A stretch of DNA of 64,000 nt from Lacipirellulaceae bacterium (GTDB lineage Bacteria > Planctomycetota > Planctomycetia > Pirellulales > Lacipirellulaceae): positions 134,588 through 198,587 of the forward strand of contig CBDFMC010000024.1 of assembly GCA_965249435.1 (NCBI GenBank). The letters run 5' to 3'. Below, piece after piece: positions 3,443-63,810 of the stretch (positions within the stretch are counted from its first letter, which is position 1; each line of letters begins with the position of its first letter). Both the position numbers and the translations under genes were made by a program. The notes beneath the pieces are model-generated. The model was not told where the DNA came from. It saw only the letters and a program-made list of their open reading frames with translations, and made no database searches.

Positions 3443-3635
3443 CTTCAGGAATTTTAGTGGCTAGATTTTACAGTGGAAAGGAGAATGCCCAAGTCACAAT
3501 TTCAGCCCCCGGCTTTGCCGGGGGGTTGCGTAATAGTCCACGTTTCCACCAAGCAGAGCATTTCCCAAGCTAAGCATTCTCGTGAAACCAACGCTTCATC
3601 AAAGGCAACCCCCCGGCAAAGCCGGGGGCTGAAAT
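3443..3635. repeat. Family A composite repeat, inverted pair (core GGCAACCCCCCGGCAAAGCCGGGGGCTGAAAT)
   Basis: Reverse-orientation core at 3499-3529 and forward core at 3604-3635, separated by a 74 bp spacer. The companion motif AGCCACTAAAATTCCTGAAG is present in reverse at 3443-3462. The same arrangement recurs at 63675-63810. Confidence 0.85.
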
Positions 3636-5173: not shown

Positions 5174-5253
5174 AATTTCAGCCCCCGGCTTTGCCGGGGG
5201 GTTGCCGAAAATTCGAGTCCACACTGCTATCACCCCCCGGCAAAGCCGGGGGC
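5174..5253. repeat. Family A repeat, tight inverted pair with conserved spacer (GAAAATTCGAGTCCACACTGCTATCAC)
   Basis: The two Family A cores lie in opposite orientation. A near-identical unit is at 62333-62413. It sits between the pyrC start and the ppk stop. Confidence 0.85.
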
Positions 5254-5255
5254 TT

Positions 5256-12948: not shown

Positions 12949-13007
12949 TTAGCCGCCGGGCTTGTCCCGGTGCGCAAGAGTAGCGCCGGGACAAGCCCGG
13001 CGGCTAA
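12949..13007. repeat. Family B palindromic hairpin repeat
   Basis: TTAGCCGCCGGGCTTGTCCCGGTGCGCAAGAGTAGCGCCGGGACAAGCCCGGCGGCTAA. It lies between the ftsH start and the MORN gene stop. Confidence 0.85.
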
Positions 13008-29406: not shown

Positions 29407-30984
29407 TTATGCCTCATCCTTGCAAAGTTTGTACTCGATGCTGTCGACCAGTGCATTCCAACTCGCTTGGATGATGTTTTCATGGACGCCGACGGTACCC
29501 CAAACGTCGTGCTCGTCGCGGCTTTCGATCACGACGCGGACGCTTGCCGCGGTGGCGGCGTCGCTGTTGATCACGCGCACCTTGTAATCGACCAGATGCA
29601 TTTGGTTTAAGCTCGGAAAATGCCCGTTCAACGCCTTACGCAGCGCCGCGTCTAGCGCGTTGACCGGGCCGTCGCCCTCGGCCACCTCGTGGCGGATTCT
29701 GTCGCCGACGCGCAGCTTGATCGTTGCCTCGGTCGTGTTGATGCCGTCGGCGCCGGTCTCGACGTTCACATGGTAGCTCAATAGCTCGAAGTGCGGCGTG
29801 AAGGTGCCGGCTGACCGTTTTACGAGCAGGTCGAACGAAGCCTCGGCCGCCTCGAATTGGTAGCCTTGGTTTTCCAACGCGACCACCTCGCTGAGCACCC
29901 GATCCATCAACTCGCGGTCATGCTCCATGTTCAGCTTCGTGGTCAGGGCGATGACGTTCGACCGGCCGGAAAGTTCGCTGACCAGCACGCGGCGGGTGTT
30001 GCCAACCAGCGCCGGGTCGATGTGCTCGTAACTGCTCGTCTGTTTGGCTACCGCATGGACATGCATGCCCCCTTTGTGGGCAAATGCGCTGGGACCTACA
30101 AAGGGTTGACTATTGCGAAAATGCATGTTGCCGATTTCGTAAACATAGCGGGCCAACTCAGTAAGGTGTTCGACTGAATTGGTAGCGGAAGAACTGCCGC
30201 CCAGGACTTCATAGCCCCCTTTCTTCAGGGCCAGATTTGCCGCGACCGAAATAAGGTCGGCATTGCCACACCGCTCGCCGAGACCGTTGATCGTGCCTTG
30301 CACCTGCACGGCGCCGGCATCGACCGCCGCCAATGAATTGGCCACCGCCAAATCGCAATCGTTGTGTGTGTGGATACCTAGTGGCACGTCGACCTTGGCA
30401 ACGGTATCCTTGGTGATCGCGGCGATTTCCTCGGGCAGGCTGCCGCCGTTAGTGTCGCACATGACAACGATGGAAGCGCCACCCTCGACCGCTGCTTGGA
30501 TGGTTTTCGCCGCATACTCGGGATTAGCCTTCCAACCATCGAAAAAATGCTCCGCATCGTAAATCACCTCGCGGCCCATGTCGCACAAATGTGCCACCGT
30601 TTCGCGGATCATCGCCAGGTTTTCTTCCAGCGAAACGCCCAACACCTCGCGCACATGGAACTCGGACGTTTTGCCGACGATCGTGATAACTGGTGCTTGT
30701 GAATCGACCAGTGCCTTCATGCCCGGGTCGTCGGCCGGCTGCAACCCGCGGCGTCGGGTCATTCCAAACGCACAAACTTTGGCATGTTTCAACGGCTTCT
30801 CGACCAATCGCTGAAAGAACTCGGCATCCTTGGGATTGCTGAGCGGATAGCCACCCTCGACGAAATCGAACCCCAGTTCGTCCAACCGCCGTGCGATGAG
30901 CAGCTTGTCTTCCAGCGAAAAGTTCACCCCTTCACCTTGGGCACCGTCGCGGAGCGTCGTATCGTAGATTTGAATCGATGGCAT
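29407..30984 (-). CDS. 2-isopropylmalate synthase / (R)-citramalate synthase family (LeuA/CimA)
   Basis: The N-terminus IYDTTLRDGAQGEGVNFSLEDKL and the H.HND region are present, plus a C-terminal LeuA dimerisation/regulatory domain. 525 aa, which is closer to citramalate synthase in length. Confidence 0.8.
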   Translation of the reverse strand: MPSIQIYDTTLRDGAQGEGVNFSLEDKLLIARRLDELGFDFVEGGYPLSNPKDAEFFQRLVEKPLKHAKVCAFGMTRRRGLQPADDPGMKALVDSQAPVITIVGKTSEFHVREVLGVSLEENLAMIRETVAHLCDMGREVIYDAEHFFDGWKANPEYAAKTIQAAVEGGASIVVMCDTNGGSLPEEIAAITKDTVAKVDVPLGIHTHNDCDLAVANSLAAVDAGAVQVQGTINGLGERCGNADLISVAANLALKKGGYEVLGGSSSATNSVEHLTELARYVYEIGNMHFRNSQPFVGPSAFAHKGGMHVHAVAKQTSSYEHIDPALVGNTRRVLVSELSGRSNVIALTTKLNMEHDRELMDRVLSEVVALENQGYQFEAAEASFDLLVKRSAGTFTPHFELLSYHVNVETGADGINTTEATIKLRVGDRIRHEVAEGDGPVNALDAALRKALNGHFPSLNQMHLVDYKVRVINSDAATAASVRVVIESRDEHDVWGTVGVHENIIQASWNALVDSIEYKLCKDEA

Positions 30985-34463: not shown

Positions 34464-34522
34464 TTAGCCGTCGGGCTTGTCCCGGCGCGCGATGACACCG
34501 CCGGGACTAACCCGACGGATAA
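34464..34522. repeat. Family B palindromic hairpin repeat (degenerate copy)
   Basis: TTAGCCGTCGGGCTTGTCCCGGCGCGCGATGACACCGCCGGGACTAACCCGACGGATAA. Confidence 0.7.
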
Positions 34523-41311: not shown

Positions 41312-42043
41312 TTGATGTTTGCACTCGTGAAAAACAGAGTTTGTTCCGCGGTTATTGTAGGAACCATTAGTTTTGCTGTGGGGGGAGGTTCCGCCCTGGC
41401 AGGCTTAGTTGGCTTGGATCCCAACTCATCCGATTCCGTGAAACTGTCCGATTTGCTCGACGATACCACGGATGGGGTTATCGTGGGCGATAAGATTTTT
41501 GATGGTTTCGTTTACTCGACGATCGGCGACATGCCCATGCCTGAAGATGTCAACGTGCTTGGCTTCACCGATTTAGATGGCAACTATGGCATTAGCTTCC
41601 ATGGTGCGTTTATTGACATGCCAGGCGGCGGGCCATCCGATGCGCTGATCCGATTTACGGTAGAAGTGGATGATGAGGCCCAAGCGAGAGGTTGGGTTAT
41701 TTCAGATGCCCATTTATCTATCGGCGGTATCGGCGTCGGCGACGACTCGGTATTCACCGTGGATGAATCCTTTGAAGGCAGCAACGAATCGCTCAGTGTG
41801 TTCGCCTCGACGCTGGGCCAAGGTGGCCAGTCACTATCTGATTGGACCTATTTTGTTCCCACCGTGACCAAGCTCCGCGTGTCGAAGGATATCTTTGCCC
41901 TTGCTGGTGAGAATGCGATTGTTCCTGCCAGGGCAACGGTGATTGATCAATCGTTCTCACAAGTGCCGGAGCCTGCCGCGTTGACGCTTTTGGCGATTTC
42001 TCTGGCGGGAGCTATGACAACGGCTCGACGTCGACAGGGTTGA
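41312..42043 (+). CDS. PEP-CTERM sorting-domain secreted protein
   Basis: A signal peptide, and the C-terminus VPEPAALTLLAISLAGAMTTARRRQG. Confidence 0.8.
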   Translation: MMFALVKNRVCSAVIVGTISFAVGGGSALAGLVGLDPNSSDSVKLSDLLDDTTDGVIVGDKIFDGFVYSTIGDMPMPEDVNVLGFTDLDGNYGISFHGAFIDMPGGGPSDALIRFTVEVDDEAQARGWVISDAHLSIGGIGVGDDSVFTVDESFEGSNESLSVFASTLGQGGQSLSDWTYFVPTVTKLRVSKDIFALAGENAIVPARATVIDQSFSQVPEPAALTLLAISLAGAMTTARRRQG

Positions 42044-42325
42044 TTTGGCAAAAGAACGACTGCTCTGCTGCACACAAGATGAGTGCAAACATGATGTCTA
42101 GGACATAAGAATGACCGACAAAAGTATGTCGGGAAGTGGGACGCGGATTTTGAAACTCGAGTTTGATTTGCGTGAATTACCAGACAAACCCTGCTAACCA
42201 ATCGGCAATAGAGGGTATTGTGGTTCTAGCGTCTAATGATATCATCGGTAATAAGTGTCTAATCCGCGTGCCATGGTCTGGTATAATTGAGCCGCGAGAA
42301 TCTGGTAGTCGTTAAGGAGCAACAG

Positions 42326-43465
42326 ATGGAACTTTTGAGATTCGTTGCATTATGGACGATCGGCTGTTTTTTTTTAACGCTCGCTAAAAACGGGTTTAGC
42401 CAGGATTCTCAACTGGCTGAAATTCTTGAAGCATTTCACAATCAAGAGCAGGTCGTTCGCTCGGTATCATTGTCCATTGATGCCCAACAGCGAGTGTCCA
42501 CTCGGGACCGGCAGAAATTAGAACCAAAACATGAGAATGTTAGATCTGATAGAGATTCCTCTGAACGTGGCATCGAGTTGTCGAACACTGTATCCAGTGA
42601 CTTCCACATGAAAATACTCTTCATGAAAGAGAACGACCGCGCCCGGATTAAGTCCAGCAGATCAATTTACAACGATATGGAAAAACGCTTATTCGCCTCC
42701 ACATCAGATTTTACTGTCGATGGGGATGAATACATTAGAAGTCTGCGAACACGAGAGTCTCAAAAGGCGGCACGAGGGGCAATTCATACCAAGGAGAGGC
42801 GCAATATAGATATAGACACCGCCTCCTACAGGCCGATTTGGCTTGCATTTAGCCCTTTTAGTTCAAAAAACTTGCCAGGAATGACTCTTGACAAAATGGA
42901 GGTCATAGGTAGAAAAGAGCTAAGTGACGGTCAAACTGCAATTATTCTTGCTAGACCAGACAAAAGACGAGTACTATGGATCGACGGAGGCAACTACACC
43001 ACTCTGTTAAAGTACGTGATAACTGATCGCTCGAATACTTCTAGGGCGATTGTTGATATCACAAAATCGAAGATCGAGCAAGGAGTAAGCATACCTTTGC
43101 AATGGGAGGTTAGCTATTTCGGTAGCAATGGGGCATTAAAGAGTTTTGAAATGTTGGATGTTTTAGACTATGAGATTAATCCCAAGTTAGATCAAAGCGA
43201 TTTTCACCTGGAATTTCCCCCAGGCACGCTTGTTTCGGACGAACGTTTGCCAACTAATCAATACTCATTCATTGACTTTGATGGCAGTGTTAAGAAGGTT
43301 GCTAAGAGTGGTATAGACTCAATTTTGCTTAACGGAGTGACTGTAGAGGACTCTCTCACCAGTAAATCATGGAATCCAATCCTGGTTCTTTTGAATTCCA
43401 TAATAGTACTGGTGCTGGTATTGTTGTACATCAGGAAGCGAGCGGCTGTTAATCAATTCAAGTGA
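42326..43465 (+). CDS. Hypothetical secreted/membrane-anchored protein in a low-GC islet
   Basis: An N-terminal signal (MELLRFVALWTIGCFFLTLA) and a C-terminal transmembrane segment (ILVLLNSIIVLVLVLLYI). Local GC is clearly lower than in the flanking sequence. No family was recognised. Confidence 0.5.
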   Translation: MELLRFVALWTIGCFFLTLAKNGFSQDSQLAEILEAFHNQEQVVRSVSLSIDAQQRVSTRDRQKLEPKHENVRSDRDSSERGIELSNTVSSDFHMKILFMKENDRARIKSSRSIYNDMEKRLFASTSDFTVDGDEYIRSLRTRESQKAARGAIHTKERRNIDIDTASYRPIWLAFSPFSSKNLPGMTLDKMEVIGRKELSDGQTAIILARPDKRRVLWIDGGNYTTLLKYVITDRSNTSRAIVDITKSKIEQGVSIPLQWEVSYFGSNGALKSFEMLDVLDYEINPKLDQSDFHLEFPPGTLVSDERLPTNQYSFIDFDGSVKKVAKSGIDSILLNGVTVEDSLTSKSWNPILVLLNSIIVLVLVLLYIRKRAAVNQFK

Positions 43466-43502
43466 CTTATTCCACAAGGTTCCCTAGGAAAGGAGTGTTG
43501 TT

Positions 43503-43892
43503 ATGCAGCTTCTGATCTCGTTTAATCGCCAAGTCGTGTATTCCGTGGCATTTATTTTGGGTGTTCTCCTTGCTTATCCGATGGTTAGTACTGTCTTTGG
43601 GGTTTGCATAAAACAACCGTGTGTTGAAAGTTTTAATTTTGGATTCGATAGCAGTTCATGTGATTTCGGCGTTCATTTCGAACGTTTAATGACAATAGGC
43701 CCAAATGTTTACGCCCAACATGGCGACGGTGATATTGTTAATACATCCGCAACACCCGTAGGCCAAAAAGATGCTGATACGATTGGCAACTGTACTAGCG
43801 CTAACGGTTTTATTCAGGTGGCCGCCAAGTGTGAAGTGTTTGGCCAGTGGGAGGAAATTCAAAATTGGGCATTTTGTACTTGGGGTGGCTAG
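43503..43892 (+). CDS. Hypothetical small Cys-rich secreted protein
   Basis: 129 aa with a signal/transmembrane-like N-terminus and 7 Cys. It is in the low-GC islet. Confidence 0.4.
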   Translation: MQLLISFNRQVVYSVAFILGVLLAYPMVSTVFGVCIKQPCVESFNFGFDSSSCDFGVHFERLMTIGPNVYAQHGDGDIVNTSATPVGQKDADTIGNCTSANGFIQVAAKCEVFGQWEEIQNWAFCTWGG

Positions 43893-44085
43893 GGCCTCAT
43901 TTTATGACAGGCTCCCATGGTTGAAGGGGATATCTCTAAGCTGACCGCTAGACCAGCCCTGCTCGCTCGCTGAGGCGTAGCAGTACCATACCATAGCGGC
44001 ATCGAAATACGACTTCAGCACCAAGACCATGTCACTGGGCGTGACGCGACCCAACGGGGCGACATAAACGTCGCCCCGTTTTTTT

Positions 44086-44435
44086 ATTGAAGGGAACCGT
44101 ACCAACCCCGAGACAACTACCACGGGACTTTGCAATTTAGACGAGCGGTAGATAAGGACTTACCAGCACGCAGCGCAAGCAAGTGGGTCTCATGCACACA
44201 CTCGCTTGCGCGTCGTGCTAGTATTCTGGTAAATTTTCAATTGCCGCTCGCCTAACAGTCCTCCTTTCCAACAAGCAGAGCATTTCCACGAAGGCAACCC
44301 CCCGGCAAAGCCGGGGGCTTAAATGCTTTCCTCGAACGGTAGCCACTAAATTCCCTGAAGAACCTTTTTGTTGAAGAGAACCATATCAACCCCGGGAGAA
44401 CTACCACGGGTCTTTGCAATTGAGAGCCGCTTGCC
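44086..44435. repeat. Repeat cluster. An ~65 bp direct repeat sits at 44086-44150 and 44372-44435. A Family C element lies at 44140-44251, a Family A core at 44293-44324, and an AGCCACTAAATTCCCTGAAGAACC companion motif at 44341-44364.
   Basis: TTGAAGGGAACCGTACCAACCCCGAGACAACTACCACGGGACTTTGCAATTTAGACGAGCGG is nearly the same as TTGAAGAGAACCATATCAACCCCGGGAGAACTACCACGGGTCTTTGCAATTGAGAGCCGC. Confidence 0.8.
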
Positions 44436-46078: not shown

Positions 46079-46492
46079 AGTTTTTCCACTGCTTTTGAAA
46101 GGATCGTAACACTTTAGCTAAATGCGGCGAATCAGAAAATCACCACAGAGAACACCGAGGTCACGGAGATTCTATCACTCCTTTCAATGGATGGGCAGCT
46201 AGAATTTATTTTCCTCTGTAAGACAAACCCGTAAAAGCTTGTTGTTTTGACACTCTTTTTGAAAAGCCACGGATTGAACACGGATGAAACAGGGATAACA
46301 AGAAGATTTTTCTATGCCAAAGTTATCAATTTATCCGTGTTCAATCCGTGGCTAAAGAAATCTTTTTGTGCCTTTTGGTGTTTTTTGTGGCTATTCTTCT
46401 TTGGTTGCGGCAATGGGCCGCGCTGTGTTCCTCCGTTTGCTCTGTGGTTAATCTTTCTAGGAACTGCTGTGATGGCTAGAGTGTTACAAAGG

Positions 46493-46524
46493 GGCAACCC
46501 CCCGGCAAAGCCGGGGGCTGAGAT
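46493..46524. repeat. Family A repeat core (solo copy)
   Basis: GGCAACCCCCCGGCAAAGCCGGGGGCTGAGAT. Confidence 0.85.
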
Positions 46525-46534
46525 TGGGAGGCGT

Positions 46535-48511
46535 CTACTTGGCGTCCGGTAATTCCGACCGACGGGCAACTTCCTCGATCTCTTCGCGGATTTGTTTGAC
46601 AAACTTGTTTTTCTCAAAAGTATCTCGAACGGCCGTGAAATCTTTATCCATTTCATCGTCCGGGCCCAACAATCCGAAACCGGTGCGAGTTCGCGGCTGG
46701 AACTCTTTTTCTGCATCACCGAGAATCAGGTGCAAGAATTTAGTGCGCAACTCGCCCCACGACTTGGCTGCGGACTTGATCTCTTCAACACTCAACTCAG
46801 CAATGCTCGTGCCAAAATGTTTTTCGTACGCCCACGATACCCAGGCCCATTCATCCTCGTGGTAGGCATCGTGGATTTGTAATAACGCGGACTGCAAGCC
46901 TGCAACGGTATCAATCTCACCCGACTCAATGTGCGTGCAAAGCCGCTCGAATCGCGATTGGGGCATCATCTGTCCCGCCAGGTCAATCCACTCTTCGCTG
47001 AAGACCGCTGCATCTTCGACGACAAGTCGTCGGCTTGGGTCTTTTGCACCGGTTGCCTCGAACCGGCTGAGCAGCCGCTCCTGCAGATACATTTCGATTC
47101 CCGCCTTGTAGAATCGAATTCCCTTGCGCAATAGGACTCGCCGCACTTCGGCGCCATCAAGCGTGACAATGCTCTTGGCGGTATCCGTCGACTCGCTCGC
47201 TTCGCGCAGTTTCTCGGTGCCACGTAACATTCGTCCCACGGTGAGCGGACTGAATACGTCGAAGTCGATGATGTCGCGCTTGACCACTCCTTTGCGGCGG
47301 TCGCGCGTGGGCCATTTTGCACCGTCACGGACCGTGCCGACGGTCGACAGATAGAGCCCGGGCACCATCTCGCATCGGCCGTTCGACTTGGCTTCGATGT
47401 GGCTAAACGGAAAGTCGCGTGTATCGAAGGTGCGCGTGTGCTTGCCGAGTATCACGGAAAACGGGCCAACGCGGCATGGCCACATCATGTAAGAGAAGGA
47501 GCCTGTTTTGCAGCCGCGCTCGAGCTTCCCCTCATGCACCGGGCCAAGCTTGTACATGTGGTTCGACTGATTGGTTGCGCTGCCGGCATTAAAAAAGCTG
47601 AATAGACCGGCAATGAGCAAGGTGCTCTTGTGATGCGTGACTGTGTAAGGCCCGGCAAAGATGCTGCACGCTTCGCCATGAAACCCTTCGCAATTGGCAA
47701 AGAAGATCGACCCTTCGGATGAAAACTGTTTTCCAATCTGACAACCTTGGCCGACAAACGATTTACAAACAATCGCCCCCGAATCGACGTTAGCCCCTTC
47801 GGCGAGAATAAAATCTTCGGCCACGACCCCGACACCCACGAACGCCCGCGCATCGGGGCAGCTTAGGATGGTTCCGTTGACCAATGACGCAGCACTTTGA
47901 AGAATCGCACCATCGCCTATGTTGACGTTGGTGATGCGCGAAACAGAAGTGATCTTCGCGGCCTGCCCAATCGTGCCACGATCGCTACGAACGGCATCGA
48001 CCGCCGATTTGGCGAGATGGTTCAGCCGCTCGGTAAGCTTCGGCCTCGAACGGGCCAAACATTGCAAATAGGCAAACTGGGCCGATAGTTCGTTGAACAG
48101 GGTGACTTCACGTCCTCCCGCTTCATTGAGCGCTTCGACCTCGACGCCGTTGCCAAATGTTGCGCCGGCGCTTGTTTCCAGAACGCCGACATCCTCAATC
48201 GAGGCCCCATCGCCAATGGAGTAGCCTGCAATGTGGGAGTGAATCTTGGCAATCCGCACGCCGTCGCCTATCGTGCAATTGCTGATGTAAGCACGATAGA
48301 TGCCGGCCGGTTTTTCCAGCCCCGAATCTGTGCGGATTGAACCTCGCAAATCGCCGATGGCAACCATGCCGGCAAAATGAACATGACGGACTCGCTCGAG
48401 CTCGAAGTCGACGGTTACCCGGACTTGCGACCAATCCTCCGCGGTACAGCCCTGTGACTCGAGTTGTTCGATCTGCGCAGGTTTGAGTGGTTGATGGTTT
48501 TCTCTCTTCAA
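46535..48511 (-). CDS. Large left-handed beta-helix (hexapeptide-repeat) protein, DUF4954-like
   Basis: 658 aa with two long runs of hexapeptide repeats ([LIV]GxxxxI...), for example IGDGVRIAKIHSHIAGYSIGDGASIEDVGVLE. The size and layout match the DUF4954 family as remembered. Confidence 0.5.
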   Translation of the reverse strand: MKRENHQPLKPAQIEQLESQGCTAEDWSQVRVTVDFELERVRHVHFAGMVAIGDLRGSIRTDSGLEKPAGIYRAYISNCTIGDGVRIAKIHSHIAGYSIGDGASIEDVGVLETSAGATFGNGVEVEALNEAGGREVTLFNELSAQFAYLQCLARSRPKLTERLNHLAKSAVDAVRSDRGTIGQAAKITSVSRITNVNIGDGAILQSAASLVNGTILSCPDARAFVGVGVVAEDFILAEGANVDSGAIVCKSFVGQGCQIGKQFSSEGSIFFANCEGFHGEACSIFAGPYTVTHHKSTLLIAGLFSFFNAGSATNQSNHMYKLGPVHEGKLERGCKTGSFSYMMWPCRVGPFSVILGKHTRTFDTRDFPFSHIEAKSNGRCEMVPGLYLSTVGTVRDGAKWPTRDRRKGVVKRDIIDFDVFSPLTVGRMLRGTEKLREASESTDTAKSIVTLDGAEVRRVLLRKGIRFYKAGIEMYLQERLLSRFEATGAKDPSRRLVVEDAAVFSEEWIDLAGQMMPQSRFERLCTHIESGEIDTVAGLQSALLQIHDAYHEDEWAWVSWAYEKHFGTSIAELSVEEIKSAAKSWGELRTKFLHLILGDAEKEFQPRTRTGFGLLGPDDEMDKDFTAVRDTFEKNKFVKQIREEIEEVARRSELPDAK

Positions 48512-48645
48512 CGCATTGGCTCCTCGAGGCTTTTTTTGGCAGAAGATAGCGGTCCGACAAATTCGTCGTGGCCGACGACGCTAACGCCGGTGAATTGTCA
48601 GATCGCGGCTACTTTCTACCACTATCTACTGCCCACTTTCCCCAC

Positions 48646-50058
48646 CTAGACGCCTGCTGGGACGCCGCCTTTGTGCTTCTCCCAAATCTTGGGGAGCAGC
48701 TCTTCGGTTTTTTCTTCCAACTCCTGATCGCTGATGGCGGTTAGTCGGCCATCCTTTTCATACTGATCCATCACCCATCGGGCTAGCTTGTGGATCTTGA
48801 TCTTGCTCACGCGGTCGTCGCCCGAAAGGCCGAGGAACTCGTTGACCCAGAGAACGATGCCATCGGCTCCGCTTTTGTCGGTAATCGCCACTCGCGGCGG
48901 ACGATTGAGCAGCTTGGTGGTATCCATGATATTGTAAATCCGCTCGTCCGATCGCAAGCCCCCGGCATGGATACCGGCGCGAGTCGTGTTGAAGTATCGA
49001 CCGACAAACGGATAGTTCTCCGCAATGGGAAATCCAATCGACTTCATGTACTCGGCCAACTCGGTGATGACGGTTGTGTCGATCCCGTTCAATTCGCCTT
49101 TGAGCGCAATGTACTCCATGATTGCGCCTTCGACAGGCGGGTTGCCGCAGCGCTCGCCGTAGCCGAACAGTGTGCCGTTGACGGCGTTGCAACCGTAGAG
49201 CCACGCGGTCGACGCGTTGGCATGCACGCGATGGAAGTCGTTGTGCCCATGCCATTCCAGCCGATCGCTCGGCACACCACATTCCTGGTTGAGCTTGTAA
49301 ATCAGCTTGGGAATGCTCCGCGGCAACTCCGCATTCGGATAGTGCAACCCGAAGCCCATCGTGTCGCATAGCCGAATCTTGACCTTGAGGTCATCGGGCA
49401 CTTGTTCCGACATCTCCATCAGTCGGTCGACGAATGGCAGAATGAATCCGTCAATATCAGCCCGGGTCAAGTCTTCCAGATGGCAGCGGGGGCGAATGCC
49501 CGCTTCGAATGCCGCATCAACCACTTCACAGTAGCTGTCCATGCACTCTTTGCGGCTTTTGAACTTGAGCTTCTGGAAGATGTGATAGTCGCTGCTGCTG
49601 GTAAGCATGCCGGTTTCTTTGAGTCCCGCCTCCTTGACCAGACGAAAGTCGCCCTTCACGGCACGAATCCAGCCGGTGCATTCGGGAAACTTGTGCCCCA
49701 GTTCGCGGCAGCGGTCGAGCGTTTCCCGATCGTTCTTCGTGTAGAGGAAAAACTCGGTCTGACGGATTACGCCGTTGGGGCCACCGAGTCGGGCTAGCAT
49801 GTCGTAGATCTTGACCATCTGGTCGATCTTATACGGCGGACGAGCCTGTTGGCCGTCGCGGAAGGTGGTGTCGGTCACGACGATGTCCCGTTTTTTGACC
49901 GAGTTGAAATCGAACTCAACCGGCTTGCCGTCGATCTGCTCGATAACCGGATCGTCCGAAAATTTTATTAGCGGCGGCAGGTCGTAGTTGAAGGTATCTT
50001 CAAGCAGATTGGGTTCGGTCGTGTCGACAAGTGGGTGATTTATTGTTTGTGCGGTCAT
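48646..50058 (-). CDS. DRE-TIM metallolyase (LeuA/HMGL-like pyruvate-carboxyltransferase fold) family protein, specific function unknown
   Basis: VVTDTTFRDGQQ, the R.HLEDLTR motif, and EWHGHNDFHRVHANASTAWLYGCNAVNGTLFGYGERCGNPP, which is LeuA-like metal and catalytic motif spacing. 470 aa, with no LeuA C-terminal regulatory domain. Confidence 0.6.
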   Translation of the reverse strand: MTAQTINHPLVDTTEPNLLEDTFNYDLPPLIKFSDDPVIEQIDGKPVEFDFNSVKKRDIVVTDTTFRDGQQARPPYKIDQMVKIYDMLARLGGPNGVIRQTEFFLYTKNDRETLDRCRELGHKFPECTGWIRAVKGDFRLVKEAGLKETGMLTSSSDYHIFQKLKFKSRKECMDSYCEVVDAAFEAGIRPRCHLEDLTRADIDGFILPFVDRLMEMSEQVPDDLKVKIRLCDTMGFGLHYPNAELPRSIPKLIYKLNQECGVPSDRLEWHGHNDFHRVHANASTAWLYGCNAVNGTLFGYGERCGNPPVEGAIMEYIALKGELNGIDTTVITELAEYMKSIGFPIAENYPFVGRYFNTTRAGIHAGGLRSDERIYNIMDTTKLLNRPPRVAITDKSGADGIVLWVNEFLGLSGDDRVSKIKIHKLARWVMDQYEKDGRLTAISDQELEEKTEELLPKIWEKHKGGVPAGV

Positions 50059-50094
50059 GGATCATCTCCAGGAAATAAATAGTGTATTCGATTG

Positions 50095-50154
50095 TTAGCC
50101 GCCGGGCTTGCCCCGGCGTTGCGTCCACGCGCCGGGACAAGCCCGGTGGCTAAC
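50095..50154. repeat. Family B palindromic hairpin repeat
   Basis: TTAGCCGCCGGGCTTGCCCCGGCGTTGCGTCCACGCGCCGGGACAAGCCCGGTGGCTAA. It lies between the acyl carrier protein gene stop and the upstream synthase start. Confidence 0.85.
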
Positions 50155-50177
50155 GGTAATTCAAACTAATCGGTGGG

Positions 50178-50432
50178 CTAAACTTCCACACCTTGCTCCT
50201 TGCAGACTTGCGTGATGAATGTAGCCGCTTTGCCAACGGTGTCGACCGACAGGGCGGCTTCCTCTTCCATCTCGATGTCAAATTCTTCCTCGAAGCTTGC
50301 AACCAATTCGATCGATTGGATGCTCTCAGCCCCCAAGTCAGCGGAAAAGTTGTCCTCGCTTTTGATCGATGAGGGATCGATTTCAAGTAGCCGTCCTGTG
50401 ACGGCGATAACACGTTCTTCTACCGTTGCCAT
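50178..50432 (-). CDS. Acyl carrier protein-like (phosphopantetheine attachment site)
   Basis: 84 aa, acidic, with a DLGAESIQSIELV motif in which Ser is the likely phosphopantetheine site. Confidence 0.65.
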   Translation of the reverse strand: MATVEERVIAVTGRLLEIDPSSIKSEDNFSADLGAESIQSIELVASFEEEFDIEMEEEAALSVDTVGKAATFITQVCKEQGVEV

Positions 50433-50471
50433 TTGATATTCTCCAATTTTGCAAGTTGTTTCAACTTTTCA

Positions 50472-51254
50472 CTACACCTGCGGGGCGCCAGGTTTTTTCT
50501 CTTGCACCCAAATGTAATAGTCGCGCATGCTCAGTTCGCTGGCCGCGTCGCTATCCAGAAACACGAGCGATGAAGGATGCAACTGCAAGGCGCTGGCGGT
50601 GAACATGCTGGTCACCGGCCCCTCGACCGAGGCCGCGACCGCAGCCGCCTTGTTCGCGCCATTGGCAAGCATGATCGACTTCCGTGATTCGAGGATGGTG
50701 CCGACGCCCATCGTGATCGCATAAATGGGCACGTCTTCCCGATTCTCAAAGAACCGTGCATTGTCATCAATGGTCAGTTTCGCCAAGGTCTTTAGCCGAG
50801 TCCGTGAGGTGAGCGAACTGGTTGGTTCATTGAATGCAATATGGCCATCGGACCCGATGCCCAGGATTTGCAGATCGATTCCACCCGCTTCGACAATCTG
50901 CTGTTCGTACCATTGGCAGAACGCTTTGTAGTTTTGTGTTGTGCCAGAAGGAATGTAGATATTTTGCTCGGGGATATTGATATGCTTGAAGAGATTTTCA
51001 TGCATGAAGTAATGGTAGCTCTGCGGATGATCTCCCTTCAGGCCAACATATTCATCCAGGTTGAACGTGGTAACGTGTGAAAAGTCGAGCCCTTCGTCCT
51101 TGTGCATCCGAATCAGTTCTTTATACAGCCCCAAGGGCGTCGAACCGGTAGCCAAACCCAACACAGCATCGGGTTTGGTATTCATCACATCCGCAACCTC
51201 CCGGGCGGCCGCTCTGCTCATCTCCTCATAAGATGGACTGATAATAACTTCCAT
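50472..51254 (-). CDS. nagB: Glucosamine-6-phosphate deaminase (NagB) family
   Basis: GLATGSTPLGLYKELI...TTFNLDEYVGL. 260 aa. Confidence 0.8.
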   Translation of the reverse strand: MEVIISPSYEEMSRAAAREVADVMNTKPDAVLGLATGSTPLGLYKELIRMHKDEGLDFSHVTTFNLDEYVGLKGDHPQSYHYFMHENLFKHINIPEQNIYIPSGTTQNYKAFCQWYEQQIVEAGGIDLQILGIGSDGHIAFNEPTSSLTSRTRLKTLAKLTIDDNARFFENREDVPIYAITMGVGTILESRKSIMLANGANKAAAVAASVEGPVTSMFTASALQLHPSSLVFLDSDAASELSMRDYYIWVQEKKPGAPQV

Positions 51255-51619
51255 CGTAACAATTTCCCTTTCTCTCTTGTTTGGGGCACGCTTTGACGTG
51301 CGAGTAAAAGCCTAATTTTAGGCTTTTTCTGTGTTAAATGAATACGCTCTTTTTCAATGATCGTTTAATGATCGTGCGTTACCGGAAGATTTTTCCACAG
51401 GGGAAGCTCGTCATCCTACCAAAGTTTCTTAGTATTGGCGAGTAGGCTGGAGCAAGGATCGCCGACAAGGCAGCTCTGGCGTTGTATTTCCAAGGAATCC
51501 GGTAACATGGCGAGCGGTGGGCGGCTAGCGCATAAAAAAACGGCTCCTTGCTAGTGTTGCAAGGAACCGTTGGATTCTCGTGCTGGAGACGAACTCTCCA
51601 TGCGTTATTCTTGGGGCAT

Positions 51620-52105
51620 TCAGCCACCGCAACCACAGCTAGGGGCGCAACCACAGCTGGCTTCACAGCAGCATGCTTTGCGGGCAGCGCGACGGGCACG
51701 CAGTTTGGCAAACAGGCCACAGCGAGGCTTGCAGCAAGGGTCGCAGCAGCAGTCGCTCGCGCAACCACAACTTGGTTCACAGGCGTCGGCGCAACCACAG
51801 CTTGCTTCACAGCAGGCGCTGGCACATCGGCATGCCTTGCGGGCAGCGCGACGGGCACGCATTTTGGCAAACAAGCCACAACGAGGCTTGCAGCAGGGGT
51901 CGCAGCAGCAGTCGCTTGCGCAACCACAGCTTGGCTCACAGGCGTCGGCACAACCACAACTGGGCTCGCAGGCGTCCGCACATCCACAGCTGGGCTCGCA
52001 GCAACTGCGACGGAACAGTCCGCCAAACGCATTCGCGTCCGAGGCACTGCTCAGTGCAATGACGACACTGAGGCCCAGCATCGAAAGAAGTAAGTGACGT
52101 TTCAT
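51620..52105 (-). CDS. Secreted cysteine-rich tandem-repeat protein (metallothionein-like composition)
   Basis: Signal peptide MKRHLLLSMLGLSVVIALSSA, followed by repeats CEPSCGCADA/CASDCCCDPCCKPRCGLFAK[ML]RARRAARKAC. About 25% Cys. Overlapping ORFs in other frames and strands (51379-52047, 51548-52093, 51570-52097) are repeat artefacts. Confidence 0.55.
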   Translation of the reverse strand: MKRHLLLSMLGLSVVIALSSASDANAFGGLFRRSCCEPSCGCADACEPSCGCADACEPSCGCASDCCCDPCCKPRCGLFAKMRARRAARKACRCASACCEASCGCADACEPSCGCASDCCCDPCCKPRCGLFAKLRARRAARKACCCEASCGCAPSCGCGG

Positions 52106-53514: not shown

Positions 53515-54900
53515 CTACGGCAACGCAGCCATTCGCAGGGCTGCCAGATAAGGCACCGGTTCGCTACCTAGCGCATTGAGCACCGTGCCGCCGGCGGTAA
53601 AGACATGGGTAACCCAGTCAGCCTGCCCATACTTTTCCAGTGCTTTGCCCCCTTCGCCACCGCCAACGTAGACTTCTACACCCGAGTTCTTCATTCGTTT
53701 TAGCTGAGGAATAAACTGGCGCGTGCCCGATTCAAATCGTGGGTCTTCAAACATGCCAAACACACCGTTGTGAAAGGCGACGGCACCCGCGGGATGACTG
53801 GCAAGAAACTCACCGACCTTTTCCTCGAATAGCTTACTTGTCTTGGGGCCAATATCAAACTGCTGATCGGTTGGCTGCAACTGGTCTACAGCCGACCCAT
53901 CTTCGATCACCGAATCGATGGGAATCACAAATTCAATCCCCTTCTGCCGGCCATCACAAATCATTTGCTTGGCCTGTTCGATCCGATCGTGCGGGATGAA
54001 ATAGGGCTTACTGGCGTGCTCGGGATCTTCGGCTGCTCCAAGACAACATTCCTGGCCATCGAGTTGGGCAACCCCTTTTTTCAACGCCATGGCAAGCGAC
54101 CCGGCCGCGAAAACCGTGCGGATGGTTCCTCGGCCAATCATTGCCTCCAAATCATCGAGTTTGTCGATCTTCAGTCCGCTGAAAATTACCAACTTGGTTT
54201 CCAGGCAACGTCGCATCGGCCCGTCAAATTCGCTGGCCACGTAGGTGCCCAGCGCGACTCGCGGCATGGCTGCTGGCACGACCGTGCTCGATGCATCCAT
54301 GCTGCCGGCCGAAAGTGCTTCGTTCACGTAGACCGACGCTACCTTTTCTGCAAATTCATTGGCCAGCTTGGTCAGCGGCTTACTAAGCTTTGCGGCATCC
54401 TCGGGCCGTGCCTTCCACAACATGCGTTCCACGGCATAACGACGTGTGTTTTCCAGCATCAATACTGAGCCAGGTTCTGCTCCCGCAATCTGCTCGCAAA
54501 CCGTATTGGGGATCGTTACGGTTTGTTCATCCAACCAATCGGTGATTAGTGGAACTTCGCACTGGAGCAACTCGCCCAATCGGGCAGCCACTTTGACGAG
54601 CGAACCTTCTGGCTTACGGCCGATGTGGCCGAAGAGGATCATTTTCCAACCCCGCTGCCGGCCAAATTCCAAGGTCTCGGTCATCGAACGCAACCGGATG
54701 TCTCCCTGGCCAATGGAATCGCCCGGCTTGGCATCGACATCGCCTCGAATTAACACCGGCGTGCCTGCGGGAAGATCATCCAGCGAATCCAGGCGAGGGA
54801 TCGCTTCGAGATAATCGGCCAACTCAAGCTCTGGTAACGCGGCATGGCCAGCAAGCAGGTTGGCAATCCACTGCTGCATTTGTTCGGTGGTTAGAGTCAT
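53515..54900 (-). CDS. pgk: Phosphoglycerate kinase (with an N-terminal extension of about 50 aa)
   Basis: VLIRGDVDAKP...ILFGHIGRKPEG (N-domain) and YVGGGEGG...FTAGGTVL (C-domain Gly-rich motifs). Confidence 0.75.
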   Translation of the reverse strand: MTLTTEQMQQWIANLLAGHAALPELELADYLEAIPRLDSLDDLPAGTPVLIRGDVDAKPGDSIGQGDIRLRSMTETLEFGRQRGWKMILFGHIGRKPEGSLVKVAARLGELLQCEVPLITDWLDEQTVTIPNTVCEQIAGAEPGSVLMLENTRRYAVERMLWKARPEDAAKLSKPLTKLANEFAEKVASVYVNEALSAGSMDASSTVVPAAMPRVALGTYVASEFDGPMRRCLETKLVIFSGLKIDKLDDLEAMIGRGTIRTVFAAGSLAMALKKGVAQLDGQECCLGAAEDPEHASKPYFIPHDRIEQAKQMICDGRQKGIEFVIPIDSVIEDGSAVDQLQPTDQQFDIGPKTSKLFEEKVGEFLASHPAGAVAFHNGVFGMFEDPRFESGTRQFIPQLKRMKNSGVEVYVGGGEGGKALEKYGQADWVTHVFTAGGTVLNALGSEPVPYLAALRMAALP

Positions 54901-55804: not shown

Positions 55805-58543
55805 GTTAGCGCTCTGTGAACTCCGTCATGCCAGGAGCGTAATTCAGATCTTGACAAGCCGACGTCGTGAAGCACGCCTCTGGCGGCGGCGCTGGTTGGC
55901 CTGATCAAGTTCGCGCTGGCGATCTTCGCTGCGATGCTCAGGGTGTGCCTTGAGCCATCGGTCAGGTAGCAGCTCGGAGAGCTGTTCACGCTGGTCCCTT
56001 GAAAGCGATTCGAACGGGGTTTGGGCGTCGCCCACCCGCAAGTACTCGGGAACGATCTGAGGAAGCCGGACGAGAACATCGTTGAGATACGGGGTGACGT
56101 GGACATGATTAGAACGAGCACTCTGGATAAGCGTGTACCAGACGCATGCCGCGCGACCACCCGCATCGCTCCCAAAAAATTGGTAATTTTTTCTTCCAAT
56201 AACCGAGGGGCGAATGACTCTTTCTGCCATGTTGTTATCGATCGCATAGCGCCCGTCGGTTGCAAATCGCGTCATCGCGTTCCAACGATTGAGCAGGTAG
56301 CCGATCGCTTCGGCCAACTTGGTCGAAGGCCGTACCGTCGGCTGCACTTCGGTGAGACGATCGTGCAGAAGGGCAAGAATGGGAACCGACTCGCGCATGC
56401 GCACTTGTCGTCGCGTTTCCACATCGGTATCGGCCAGGCGATCCTCGATGTCGTACAGTTGCCAGATCCAAGCGAGCGCCTCGTGCGCAAGTGGCTGCGT
56501 TGAGACGGCGCACGCTTCGTCGAACTTCCGCCGCGCATGGGCCCAACAACCCAGATCCAGAAGTCGGCCATCCGATTCCTTGACTAGGGACGTGTAGACA
56601 CTGTAACCGTCGGTTAATAATCCGCCTTGAAAATCATCAAGTATTTCCCGCGGACCTGCGCGGGATCGATCAAGTCGATAGTCAAATAGTTGGTACGGAT
56701 GCTGGTCATCGCCAACGTAGACCCAGAGATAAACCAGCTTGGTCGCCCCAGCCCCGGGACGCAGGACACGGGCCGTGGTCTCGTCGGCCCGTACATAAAA
56801 ACTATCCAGTACTTGGGTGCGAATCAGATCCCACACCGGCAGCAGACGCTCGCCCGTTCGCACCACGGCGTTGCTCAACACGCTGCGGTTGAACCACATC
56901 GTGGTGGTGGAACGAAGCTCTTCCTGGAGACGATACAGGGGCAGGTGACGCTCGAACTTGGCGTGTGCCAGCCAGGCTAACGTGCTGGCCCCAAATATCC
57001 CTTTTTCGTTGATATTGGGTGGCTTTTCGCTGGTGACGATCTGCTGGCCATCCCGGCTAACAGGGCAACCGTAGGTAAACCGAACGTGCTCGGCGATGTA
57101 GGCGCTAGACTCAACATATTCTAGTTGCCGTGAGATCTGCTCGGAGATCACCGTCCGCTTGCCGCCACATCCACAAGGACAATCGAGTTCTTCCGGCGGC
57201 AGTGGGTGTTCAAAACGCTGGACCGGCAAGCACTCGGGGAATTCAAAACGTTTGCGCTTCTTACGGCGTTTCTTGCGTTTCGAAGACGATTCATCGTCTG
57301 GCTCTTCTTCGTCGGTCGCCTCGTCATCCTCGCTAATCTCGTTGCCCTCGATCGACTCGGGATCAAAAAGAAGCTTTTGATCGGGAGAAGGGATAAACCG
57401 TTCACGCCGTGGAGAAAAGAGTGCCTTACGGAGTAAGGTGATTTGCTCTTGCATCACCTCGATGTGATTCTGCAACGATTCAAGAGTTGCCTGTTGCTCG
57501 CTATTAACCCTTTTGAGATGTGCGATCTCGGCGCGCTGCACTTCGATCTCTTTTCGGAGTTTGTCGGATTCCATCGACAACGTTTCGGTCCTTGAAGGTG
57601 CGTCACGAAATGGCAAATGATCACACACCGTTGGTGTAGAACACACATGTTTATTTATCGACAATTCACGTTGCGCGTCAAGGTGGTTTCCAAGGCGATT
57701 GAGTAATTTGTTTTGCCTGCTCACGACGCCACCACTTGCGACGTTTGACACTCGATAGCTCGATGCCTTCCAGCAACAATCGCAGGTCGTCCACATGCAG
57801 TGTCAAGTAATCACCGGGGGATGCAATCGCCCCTCCATGGTCGGCGCCACGTAGTGTCTCGGACGTTCCTCGTTCAAGATGCTTGTAGAGGATGATCGTG
57901 CCGTCACCCGTGAAATAGAGTACCTTCAACCGGTTGCGGCGTCGGTTGAAAAACAAGAAAAGATCTCCGTCTTCAATCTGTTTGCCAAGCTCCTTTTCGA
58001 CGATACCGATTAATCCACAAAAACTTTTACGCATGTCCGTGGGAGCCAACGCGGCGAAGACTTTTATTTGGGATGGCACAATCAACATGACGCCACCTCA
58101 CGCAACGCCTGCAATACGTCCTTCACTGTCTCACAATCGGTGCCGTGAGGCACATCCACAAAGACTCCCTGCTGCGGCAAGTGAATACGCAGCGTGGACG
58201 CAGGTGTCGTCCCCTCGATCCGCACAGGCACCAGTTGGGTGCCCTGGACGGCGTTACGACTGGTTTTAAGAGACTTGGTCGAACGGCTCCCCTGCTCTGG
58301 GGAGGCTTGCTGCTCACGGAACTTACGCTGCCAGGCATAATAGCTGGTTTGTGTAATCGAGTTCTGGTGGCAAAACGCCGCGATGCTCAAGCCGCTTGAG
58401 GACTGCTGTTTCAGTAGGCCACGCCAGTGGGACTCTTGGGATTTGTTTCGATTGGTCATTGTGCTCGTTCCTGGAATAAAGGGAATGGTTCACCTCTATT
58501 AGGATAGCGCGCAATTTTGGGACGCTGTTCACAGAACGCTTAC
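55805..58543 (-). mobile_element. IS66-family insertion sequence (about 2.74 kb) with an 8 bp target site duplication GCTTGTCG
   Basis: Terminal inverted repeats GTTAGCGCTCTGTGAAC (55806-55822) and GTTCACAGAACGCTTAC (58527-58543). The direct repeat GCTTGTCG lies at 55797-55804 and 58544-58551. It carries three ORFs: tnpC 55844-57796 (650 aa, CPCGCGG zinc-finger plus DDE), tnpB 57678-58088 (136 aa, IS66 Orf2-like), and tnpA 58082-58459 (125 aa, IS66 Orf1-like). Confidence 0.85.
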
Positions 58544-62332: not shown

Positions 62333-62413
62333 GAAAGCCCTCGGCTTTGCCGGGGGGTTGCCGAGAATTCGAGTCTACACTGCTACCACCCCCCGGCAAA
62401 GCCGGGGGCTTCC
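62333..62413. repeat. Family A repeat, tight inverted pair with conserved spacer (the same unit as 5174-5253)
   Basis: GAAAGCCCTCGGCTTTGCCGGGGGGTTGCCGAGAATTCGAGTCTACACTGCTACCACCCCCCGGCAAAGCCGGGGGCTTCCA. Confidence 0.85.
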
Positions 62414-63674: not shown

Positions 63675-63810
63675 AATTTCAGCCCCCGGCTTTGCCGGGG
63701 GGTTGCGGAACGATCACCGTCTCTACCAAGCATGGCTTTTCCCTGAGAGCATTTTCCCAAAAGCAACAATTTCCCGAAGGCAACCCCCCGGCAAAGCCGG
63801 GGGCTGAAAT
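63675..63810. repeat. Family A composite repeat, inverted pair with a ~72 bp spacer (the same arrangement as 3499-3635)
   Basis: Reverse core at 63675-63706 and forward core at 63779-63810. The spacer shares CCAMCAAGCAGAGCATTTCC-like sequence with the other loci. The companion motif AGCCACTCAATTCCCTGAAGAACC follows at 63843-63866. Confidence 0.85.

Follow-up and report, generated by a model that had tools for sequence, protein, structure and literature searches.

A conserved gene neighbourhood of DUF4954 beta-helix proteins, NagB and an acyl carrier protein: a possible acetyl shuttle towards glucosamine N-acetylation

What could join a sugar-phosphate deaminase, an acyl carrier protein (ACP), a synthase-like enzyme and a long beta-helix protein in a single bacterial gene cluster? 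The question is raised by four genes in a 64,000-nucleotide stretch of a contig (CBDFMC010000024.1) from a Lacipirellulaceae bacterium (Planctomycetota), a stretch that is called the window here. An initial annotation of the window had proposed that they form a conserved unit of an undescribed acyl-transfer pathway. The coordinates of the open reading frames (ORFs) bear out four co-directional genes on the minus strand:

50472-51254, minus strand: nagB, encoding a 260-aa NagB; first gene of the unit
50178-50432, minus strand: gene of the ACP, 84 aa
48646-50058, minus strand: gene of an HMGL-like enzyme, 470 aa
46535-48511, minus strand: gene of a DUF4954+DUF6819 protein, 658 aa, TTG start

The intergenic spacers measure 39 bp (nagB-ACP), 119 bp (ACP-HMGL) and 134 bp (HMGL-DUF4954). 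We find that the four genes belong to a neighbourhood that recurs in many phyla and in which the ACP goes with an enzyme of acetyl-thioester metabolism. The reading that we favour, at somewhat short of even confidence, is that the module is an ACP-linked acetyl shuttle feeding the N-acetylation of glucosamine phosphate.

Conservation of the neighbourhood

A scan anchored on the DUF4954 protein, with one genome per species, gave 80 loci, and 81 with the addition of locus L001. They come from Planctomycetota, Bacteroidota, Ignavibacteria, Latescibacterota, KSB1, Gemmatimonadota, Marinimicrobia and Spirochaetes, and a locus of Omnitrophota was added later. Neighbours were compared by tblastn and by clustering of ORFs. 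The DUF4954 proteins of these loci are 40–62% identical to the window protein (40–60% across phyla). DUF4954 has NagB within 6 kb in 52 of the 81 loci, an ACP nearby in 39, and an acetyl-thioester enzyme in 41. ACP and acetyl-thioester enzyme occur together in 37 loci; the ACP is found without such a partner in two, both on truncated contigs, and the partner without the ACP in four. Linkage across about ten bacterial phyla speaks for a functional neighbourhood rather than chance adjacency, as the initial annotation had suspected; conservation of the synteny is strong.

Three kinds of acetyl-thioester partner occur in different lineages: the HMGL-like enzyme, Pta together with AckA, and an ADP-forming acetyl-CoA synthetase (ACD). 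HMGL-like partners are 67–82% identical to the window protein, even across phyla. For example, L082 has the order [NagB+PIG-L]-NagB-ACP-HMGL-DUF4954, which is the arrangement of the window, and L088 has NagB-DUF4954-ACP-HMGL. The order in L001 is NagB-Pta-AckA-DUF4954-ACP; Pta and AckA are canonical there, and the AckA and DUF4954 genes overlap by 4 bp. The ACD is a fused ligase of about 711 aa of the ADP-forming acetyl-CoA-synthetase type, found in the order ACP-ACD-NagB-DUF4954. Most loci carry a single partner type; ACD, HMGL and ACP co-occur in L020, L038 and L104, and no ACD is present in the 64-kb window.

In a second scan, metagenome contigs were anchored on the 470-aa enzyme and analysed by tblastn and a neighbour-joining tree. 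Fifteen of these HMGL-anchored loci have the order altGlmU-ACP-HMGL, with NagB upstream in five of them. The alt-GlmU (TIGR03991 alt_bact_glmU, 334 bits against a cut-off of 225; NTP_transf_4 plus hexapeptide, a hypothetical equivalog) thus sits directly upstream of the ACP-HMGL pair, in the slot that DUF4954 takes elsewhere. It differs from DUF4954 in its length of 429 aa and in its N-terminal nucleotidyltransferase domain, and sequence similarity between the two is marginal. In L100 (6473-7789), alt-GlmU, ACP, HMGL, NagB and a divergent DUF4954-like ORF (27% identity) stand in a row, so that both beta-helix proteins are able to coexist in one cluster.

Further neighbours suggest a biosynthetic setting for DUF4954. 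In three Bacteroidota loci (L062, L076 and L079) a co-directional GlmS gene immediately precedes DUF4954; these GlmS proteins have a GATase and two SIS domains and are 45–47% identical to E. coli GlmS, which is a strictly biosynthetic enzyme. In other Bacteroidales loci DUF4954 is found among hflX-, dnaN- and radA-like housekeeping genes. A DUF4954 protein is also listed next to lgt in the reduced genome of Treponema pallidum (PMC6953169).

Other loci carry a NagB+PIG-L deacetylase fusion, a NagC/Mlc-like ROK protein or an AmpD-like amidase. The last belongs to a pattern seen in 12 planctomycete loci (L026, L030, L039, L051, L056, L058, L061, L063, L064, L066, L073 and L081), in which a divergent AmpD-like Amidase_2 gene precedes DUF4954 and NagB, with a convergent SurA-like peptidyl-prolyl isomerase in most; the pattern may indicate a connection with peptidoglycan turnover. 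A search with an E. coli NagA query validated at 745 bits found no NagA in any of 168 loci or in the window. Conserved glycosyltransferase or export genes were not found around the module.

The four proteins

The 470-aa enzyme matches Pfam HMGL-like (E 9.6e-26) over aa 61–336 (49051-49878), and the Pfam scan finds no LeuA_dimer domain in it. Its best NCBIfam match, nifV, reaches 115 bits against a cut-off of 463, and for all models of isopropylmalate, homocitrate and citramalate synthases its score is 4- to 10-fold under the cut-off. The nearest PDB sequences are CimA, isopropylmalate synthase (IPMS) and homocitrate synthase (HCS), at no better than E 1e-17. A 525-aa LeuA/CimA-type synthase (HMGL-like + HCS_D2 + LeuA_dimer) is encoded elsewhere in the window (29407-30984, minus strand). 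With equivalog scores so far under cut-off and a LeuA-type gene at hand, the enzyme is not a conventional LeuA, homocitrate or citramalate synthase, in agreement with the initial annotation.

By sequence it is instead a member of the Re-citrate-synthase family, the Clostridium kluyveri enzyme of which was reportedly described by Li et al. in 2007, and its chemistry is predicted on that footing. Metagenomic proteins 79–82% identical to it bear the Joint Genome Institute (JGI) name 'citrate (Re)-synthase', as does one member of its own 90%-identity cluster; the same cluster includes a protein from a metagenome-assembled genome of Aeoliella sp. The JGI name corresponds to KEGG K05942 (PMC11964587), and a homologue in the planctomycete Kuenenia, for which 55% identity to the C. 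kluyveri enzyme is reported, has been proposed as a Re-citrate synthase (PMC8027424). Like Re-citrate synthase (EC 2.3.3.3, K05942), the window protein is a DRE-TIM enzyme of about 450–470 aa that is related to IPMS and HCS and has no regulatory domain. The difference lies in the setting, since its clade nearly always follows a dedicated ACP and is joined to amino-sugar genes.

The tree of HMGL homologues splits cleanly into clade I, which holds the window protein, clade II, and a small intermediate group. Members of clade I are at least about 65% identical to the window protein and have an ACP directly adjacent, usually upstream; among the loci with room to tell, this adjacency fails in just three. 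Their further neighbours are DUF4954 and NagB, or alt-GlmU, and no tricarboxylic acid (TCA)-cycle gene context was found for the clade. Clade II proteins are 52–58% identical to the window protein and adjoin Asp- or His-tRNA synthetase genes; ACP, NagB, DUF4954 and alt-GlmU are never near them in the HMGL-anchored loci. The intermediate group (57–63% identity) mostly lacks the ACP. Outside clade I, six loci have a 427-aa gene of the isocitrate-dehydrogenase type (Iso_dh) beside the HMGL gene, five of them in clade II and one in the intermediate group. Among the ACP-free homologues of clade II and the intermediate group (L114, L122, L145, L148, L154, L156 and L128–L166), Asp-tRNA synthetase is a neighbour in 11 loci and His-tRNA synthetase in seven. 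These ACP-free homologues are probably ordinary Re-citrate synthases. Clades I and II have 119 conserved positions in common, with DTTFRDGQQ and EWHGHND among them. A 13-residue insertion just before DTTFRDGQQ further marks clade I and the intermediate group, in the following region:

aa 38–56 (49891-49947): N-terminal insertion region of clade I and the intermediate group

The split between ACP-linked and ACP-free enzymes calls for caution when the K05942 annotation is transferred to the whole family.

The 84-aa protein is a carrier protein by its match to Pfam PP-binding (PF00550, E 7e-12), and it is not AcpP: against the housekeeping AcpP model TIGR00517 it scores 65.2 bits, just under the cut-off of 70.45. 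Ser37 in an LGAES motif is the predicted phosphopantetheine site (codon 50322-50324). The ACPs beside HMGL, ACD and Pta-AckA form one orthologous family across phyla, with the motif DLGA[DE]S.QS[IV]EL[VI]A[AG]FEEEF.[IV]E that differs from E. coli AcpP, and the phosphopantetheine-site serine is kept in all of about 40 orthologues. Neighbours of this family are HMGL, ACD or Pta-AckA, never fab genes. The sub-cut-off score and the motif of its own thus uphold the view that this is a dedicated ACP.

NagB exceeds the curated cut-offs of TIGR00502 (327.7 bits; cut-off 236.9) and NF001684 (353.3; cut-off 326) and is 47% identical over 250 aa to E. coli NagB. It keeps the FNLDEY and GSDGHIAFNEP motifs of that enzyme and, at the allosteric site, SRTRLKTL. 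The catalytic residues of E. coli NagB, Asp72, Asp141, His143 and Glu148, agree with the aligned motifs. By these measures it is an ordinary NagB, a point that weakens the initial annotation's interpretation. The module thus recalls the nagBA(C) operons of N-acetylglucosamine (GlcNAc) catabolism in its canonical NagB and, in some loci, in a nearby NagC/Mlc-like ROK protein. Unlike those operons, the 168 loci are without NagA, and the ACP, beta-helix and acetyl-thioester genes have no counterpart there.

The 658-aa protein matches Pfam DUF4954 (E 1.8e-175, 584 bits, cut-off 26) and DUF6819 (E 8e-37, 127 bits, cut-off 23.5), and this architecture is the same in all homologues listed; the DUF4954 family numbers at least 7,996 proteins at E ≤ 1e-5. 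Its main regions are as follows:

aa 8–437 (47201-48490), minus strand: left-handed beta-helix region, DUF4954
aa 504–649 (46565-47002), minus strand: helical C-terminal domain, DUF6819
aa 270–360 (47432-47704), minus strand: near-invariant block

A first AlphaFold2 (AF2) model of the protein was poor. A second, built from an 88-sequence multi-phylum alignment, has a predicted local distance difference test (pLDDT) score of 79.5, with the N-terminal beta-helix and the all-helical C-terminal domain both confident. The beta-helix is broken in the model by a helical insert at aa 144–173. The two-domain hexapeptide protein of the initial annotation therefore survives in part: the beta-helix stands, and the two hexapeptide domains give way to an interrupted beta-helix followed by all-helical DUF6819.

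The improved model has GlmU as its best structural match, LpxD is also near, and it resembles sugar N-acyltransferases such as AntD; a resemblance to GlmU and LpxD had been supposed from the sequence, and these matches support it. GlmU and LpxD are both glucosamine 2-N-acyltransferases. Below threshold, Pfam and NCBIfam searches return the beta-helix domains of eIF2B-epsilon, GMPPB and mannose-1-phosphate guanylyltransferase. The curated GlmU models, TIGR01173 and TIGR03991 among them, and the LpxA and LpxD models of both databases do not match the protein, and a PDB sequence search gave no match. A weak hhalign alignment with alt-GlmU (E 0.002, probability 13%) brings the invariant blocks YTVTHHKSTLLIAGLFSFFNAGSATNQSN and YSNKYHDGFLGHAYVGEWVNLGALTTNSD together and puts H294, N308 and N317 of DUF4954 opposite H272, N286 and D295 of alt-GlmU, all of them invariant. 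A signature H...N.G..T...N is possibly common to DUF4954, alt-GlmU and, presumably, E. coli GlmU. An hhalign run against the single E. coli GlmU sequence was discarded; it aligned generic beta-helix turns only, in a different stretch from the alt-GlmU match.

The comparison with known enzymes can be summarized as follows. DUF4954 resembles GlmU, as encoded in the glmU-glmS operon of E. coli, in its left-handed beta-helix and in its place beside an enzyme that forms glucosamine 6-phosphate (GlcN6P), be it GlmS or NagB. In contrast to GlmU it lacks a nucleotidyltransferase domain, it has a longer beta-helix with the helical insert and a 220-aa helical DUF6819 domain after it, and the carrier associated with it is an ACP, where GlmU takes acetyl-CoA. 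The modelled fold also appears similar to LpxD and LpxA; these use long 3-hydroxyacyl chains and UDP-sugars, however, and show no sequence-level match to DUF4954. There are no lpx genes among the annotated conserved neighbour clusters, and T. pallidum, which has DUF4954, is not known to make lipid A. Fold and profile lines that are individually weak, taken together with the alt-GlmU finding and the GlmS and NagB adjacency, point to DUF4954 as an N-acyltransferase for the 2-amino group of a glucosamine phosphate.

An ACP-linked acetyl shuttle and its alternatives

On the reading that we favour, NagB would, by homology, interconvert fructose 6-phosphate plus ammonia and GlcN6P. The DUF4954 protein would be a GlmU/LpxD-like acyltransferase that N-acetylates glucosamine 6-phosphate or 1-phosphate (GlcN1P) with acetyl from the dedicated ACP, a role suggested by its fold, its neighbourhood and the alt-GlmU finding. 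The acetyl pool of the ACP would be tied to central metabolism through one of three interchangeable enzyme sets. Here the link would be a Re-citrate-synthase-like step, acetyl-S-ACP + oxaloacetate <-> citrate + HS-ACP, presumably on ACP rather than CoA; in other lineages it would be Pta plus AckA, or ACD. The gene families, their conserved linkage, the pairing of ACP and acetyl-thioester partner, the clade split of the HMGL homologues and the fold class of DUF4954 come from the data; we infer all of these mechanistic steps, including the acceptor (GlcN6P or GlcN1P), the acetyl load of the ACP, and the action of Pta, ACD and the clade I enzyme on ACP thioesters. Plain acetyl units are proposed as the load because the HMGL enzyme is replaced by Pta-AckA or ACD elsewhere.

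The net flow would run to N-acetylglucosamine phosphate and on to UDP-GlcNAc, so that the module would correspond to the glmU-glmS operon of E. coli. The biosynthetic direction is preferred because of the GlmS adjacency, the Bacteroidales housekeeping context, the retention in T. pallidum, and the thermodynamics discussed below. The citrate-synthase-like step could then either draw off acetyl-ACP, as a drain or a valve, or make acetyl-ACP from citrate. That the ACP serves as a private carrier of acetyl groups, linking central acetyl metabolism with the N-acetylation of amino sugars, is a possibility that we would call doubtful when it is taken by itself.

The gene combination is not described in the literature searched, in which we also found no functional description of DUF4954, DUF6819 or their Pfam accessions (PF16314, PF20683), nor of TIGR03991, PF13562 or TP0851; the module would amount to amino-sugar N-acetyl metabolism with a private acyl carrier. 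The initial interpretation is partly supported: the combination of genes is undescribed in that literature, and the 470-aa enzyme belongs to a known family.

Several observations weigh against the acetyl shuttle. The similarity of DUF4954 to GlmU in structure and profile is weak, and all left-handed beta-helix enzymes look alike; Foldseek ranks GlmU first, but no match reaches E 1e-3. The most conserved block of the protein, aa 276–338 (47498-47686) with the invariants HHKS, NAGS, NQSNH and YKLGP.H, has a pLDDT below 50 in both AF2 runs, against more than 85 in its flanks. The model further supposes that Pta, ACD and the HMGL enzyme take ACP instead of CoA. A citrate synthase running forward would compete with N-acetylation for acetyl-ACP and would not supply it, which makes the window's partner the hardest to fit. 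The gene content is not uniform either: the ACP-HMGL pair also occurs alone (L086, L087), AckA and DUF4954 occur without Pta or ACP (L006, L033), and tblastn with an unvalidated E. coli GlmM sequence found no homologue within 10 kb of any of the loci.

One alternative has the module work in acetyl salvage. DUF4954 would act in reverse and move the acetyl group of N-acetylglucosamine 6-phosphate (GlcNAc-6-P) to the ACP, replacing hydrolysis of the NagA type; NagB would remove GlcN6P, and the 470-aa enzyme would join acetyl-ACP and oxaloacetate, with Pta-AckA or ACD elsewhere giving acetate and ATP. It is the sole model with a role for all four window genes in favourable directions, and it would account well for the lack of NagA and for the NagB+PIG-L fusions and ROK proteins beside the module in several loci, as well as for the amidase gene divergently upstream in the 12 planctomycete loci. 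We nevertheless regard it as unlikely. The transfer from amide to thioester is about 20 kJ/mol uphill by our own estimate from textbook free energies, so that ATP could be gained through Pta-AckA or ACD only at very low product concentrations. The biosynthetic contexts named above tell against it as well, the alt-GlmU in the same slot has a nucleotidyltransferase domain for which there is no catabolic role, and nagA is reported in at least one planctomycete genome (PMC12628686). As a general account of the Pta-AckA and ACD variants, ATP-yielding deacetylation was set aside on the estimated thermodynamics and the GlmS adjacency.

It is also conceivable, at a distinctly low probability, that there is no shared pathway, and that NagB, a Re-citrate synthase of the TCA cycle, the ACP and a housekeeping protein are joined by gene order or loose co-regulation. 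A stand-alone role is plausible for each protein, the window spacers of 119–134 bp contain repetitive extragenic palindromic (REP) elements, and among the 45 DUF4954 loci that extend 5 kb or more to either side there are 8 with no partner at all. Such an account is hard to reconcile with an association that outlasts changes of order and strand, replacement of the partner and transfer across about ten phyla, with an ACP that tracks its acetyl-thioester partner almost perfectly, or with the overlapping AckA and DUF4954 genes of L001.

A further possibility concerns the origin of the acetyl group: the 470-aa enzyme may act as a citryl-ACP or citrate lyase that gives acetyl-ACP and oxaloacetate, alone or together with an ACD-like citryl-ACP synthetase. 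All partners would then supply acetyl-ACP towards N-acetylation, and the three loci with ACD, HMGL and ACP together speak for it. ATP-citrate lyase and Ccs/Ccl share this ligase-plus-lyase logic, and citrate synthase is reversible in some bacteria; ATP-citrate lyase and reversed citrate synthase may serve as precedents. In CitDEF, ATP-citrate lyase and Ccs-Ccl, as proposed here, acetyl or citryl groups carried on a thiol arm are interconverted with citrate and oxaloacetate; moreover, ATP-citrate lyase and Ccs-Ccl pair a succinyl-CoA-synthetase-like ligase with a citrate-synthase-like lyase, to which the module may be likened. In contrast, CitD is an unrelated ACP with another prosthetic group, CitE, CitF and Ccl have other folds, and no homologues of these were seen here. 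We hold this origin to be improbable, since most loci have a single partner type and the window has no ACD, since the catalytic motifs are all common to the synthase-like, ACP-less sister clade, which sometimes stands beside Iso_dh-type genes, and since an aerobic heterotroph has no obvious need to bypass the acetyl-CoA donor.

Least probable of all is the initial annotation's own proposal of a 2-oxo-acid-extended or unusually acylated amino sugar for the envelope, in which the Claisen enzyme would extend an ACP-bound or 2-oxo-acid substrate and the hexapeptide protein would place the acyl group on an amino sugar that NagB provides: the tight ACP-HMGL pair (24–45 bp spacers), also found alone, and the likeness of the beta-helix protein to LpxD and AntD would suit it, but the HMGL enzyme is exchangeable with Pta-AckA or ACD, which act on acetate-sized acids, shares all its catalytic motifs with clade II at 52–58% identity, and has no conserved glycosyltransferase or export genes near it.

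If the acetyl shuttle is correct, DUF4954 would supply the ACP-dependent N-acetyltransferase for glucosamine phosphate that is missing in Bacteroidota, Planctomycetota, Spirochaetota (Treponema pallidum among them) and allied phyla, for which alt-GlmU, a 'hypothetical equivalog', is the sole GlmU proposal so far. A role in supplying UDP-GlcNAc would close a gap in the synthesis of cell-wall precursors in these phyla and could offer a drug target; DUF4954 is also found in gut Bacteroidales. With the clade I enzyme, a citrate synthase or lyase would for the first time be seen to act on an ACP thioester, and the Pta and ACD homologues of the module would likewise use ACP, not CoA. An ACP that travels with a citrate-synthase-like enzyme, Pta-AckA or ACD would extend carrier-protein biochemistry into central acetyl metabolism. 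In the most radical form, the acetyl group of GlcNAc-6-P would be removed without hydrolysis and passed straight to citrate or ATP.

Boundaries, repeats and flanking genes

Three further elements lie in or next to the cluster:

51539-51571, minus strand: terminator-like hairpin (13-pair stem, then TTTTTAT) that ends the upstream gene
50095-50154: Family B REP-like palindrome, 60 bp, in the 119-bp ACP-HMGL spacer
46495-46520, minus strand: Family A REP-like G+C-rich hairpin immediately after the DUF4954 stop codon

The terminator-like hairpin closes the upstream gene, so that nagB opens a new transcription unit. A scan for promoters and terminators inside the cluster gave nothing beyond shuffle expectation.

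Both repeat families had been noticed near the cluster earlier, and both are present above the expected copy number. Family B arms (GCCRCCGGGCTTGYCCCGGCG) occur seven times in the window against 0.01 expected, at 342-394, 12952-13004, 34467-34487 and 50098-50150. The copies are mostly paired inverted arms about 10 bp apart, and the two that were checked for context, 12952-13004 and 50098-50150, both lie in inter-ORF spacers. The ACP-HMGL spacer is only 24–45 bp in other loci, compared with 119 bp here with the REP-like insert. The Family A hairpin (CAGCCCCCGGCTTTGCCGGGGGGTTG) has 10 copies in the window against none expected, at 3503-3631, 5179-5255, 44295-44320, 46495-46520, 62335-62411 and 63680-63806, often as inverted pairs 50–100 bp apart; the copy after DUF4954 is a possible 3' end or stabiliser of the transcript. 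As genome-wide REP-like elements, the repeats were rejected as components of the module. The 456-bp intergenic region downstream of the cluster also contains a perfect 20-bp inverted repeat, GCCACGGATTGAACACGGAT (46266-46285 and 46333-46352, 47-bp spacer), that is unique in the window.

The genes on either side of the cluster bear no relation to it and encode TrpC, a 249-aa unknown protein, a Cys-rich repeat ORF, a response regulator, an Hpt protein, a phosphoglycerate kinase (PGK)-like protein and an IS66 transposase. The Cys-rich ORF (51620-52105, minus strand; 161 aa) has a signal-peptide-like start and tandem Cys-rich repeats (CEPSCGCADA...CCCDPCCKPRCGLFAK) and gave no Pfam match. It is overlapped by several long ORFs in other frames, and the strong terminator-like hairpin (51571-51539) comes next. 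The PGK-family protein (53515-54900, minus strand), at 461 aa, is longer than usual phosphoglycerate kinases, and its Pfam match is modest (168 bits) and begins at residue 45. The IS66-family transposase (650 aa; 55844-57796, minus strand) lies about 4.6 kb upstream of the cluster. On the other side of the cluster, positions 42001-44000 include an ORF of 392 aa without a Pfam match (42287-43465) and a second of 129 aa (43503-43892); the GC content of this stretch is low, 0.446 against about 0.54 elsewhere, and it may be foreign DNA.

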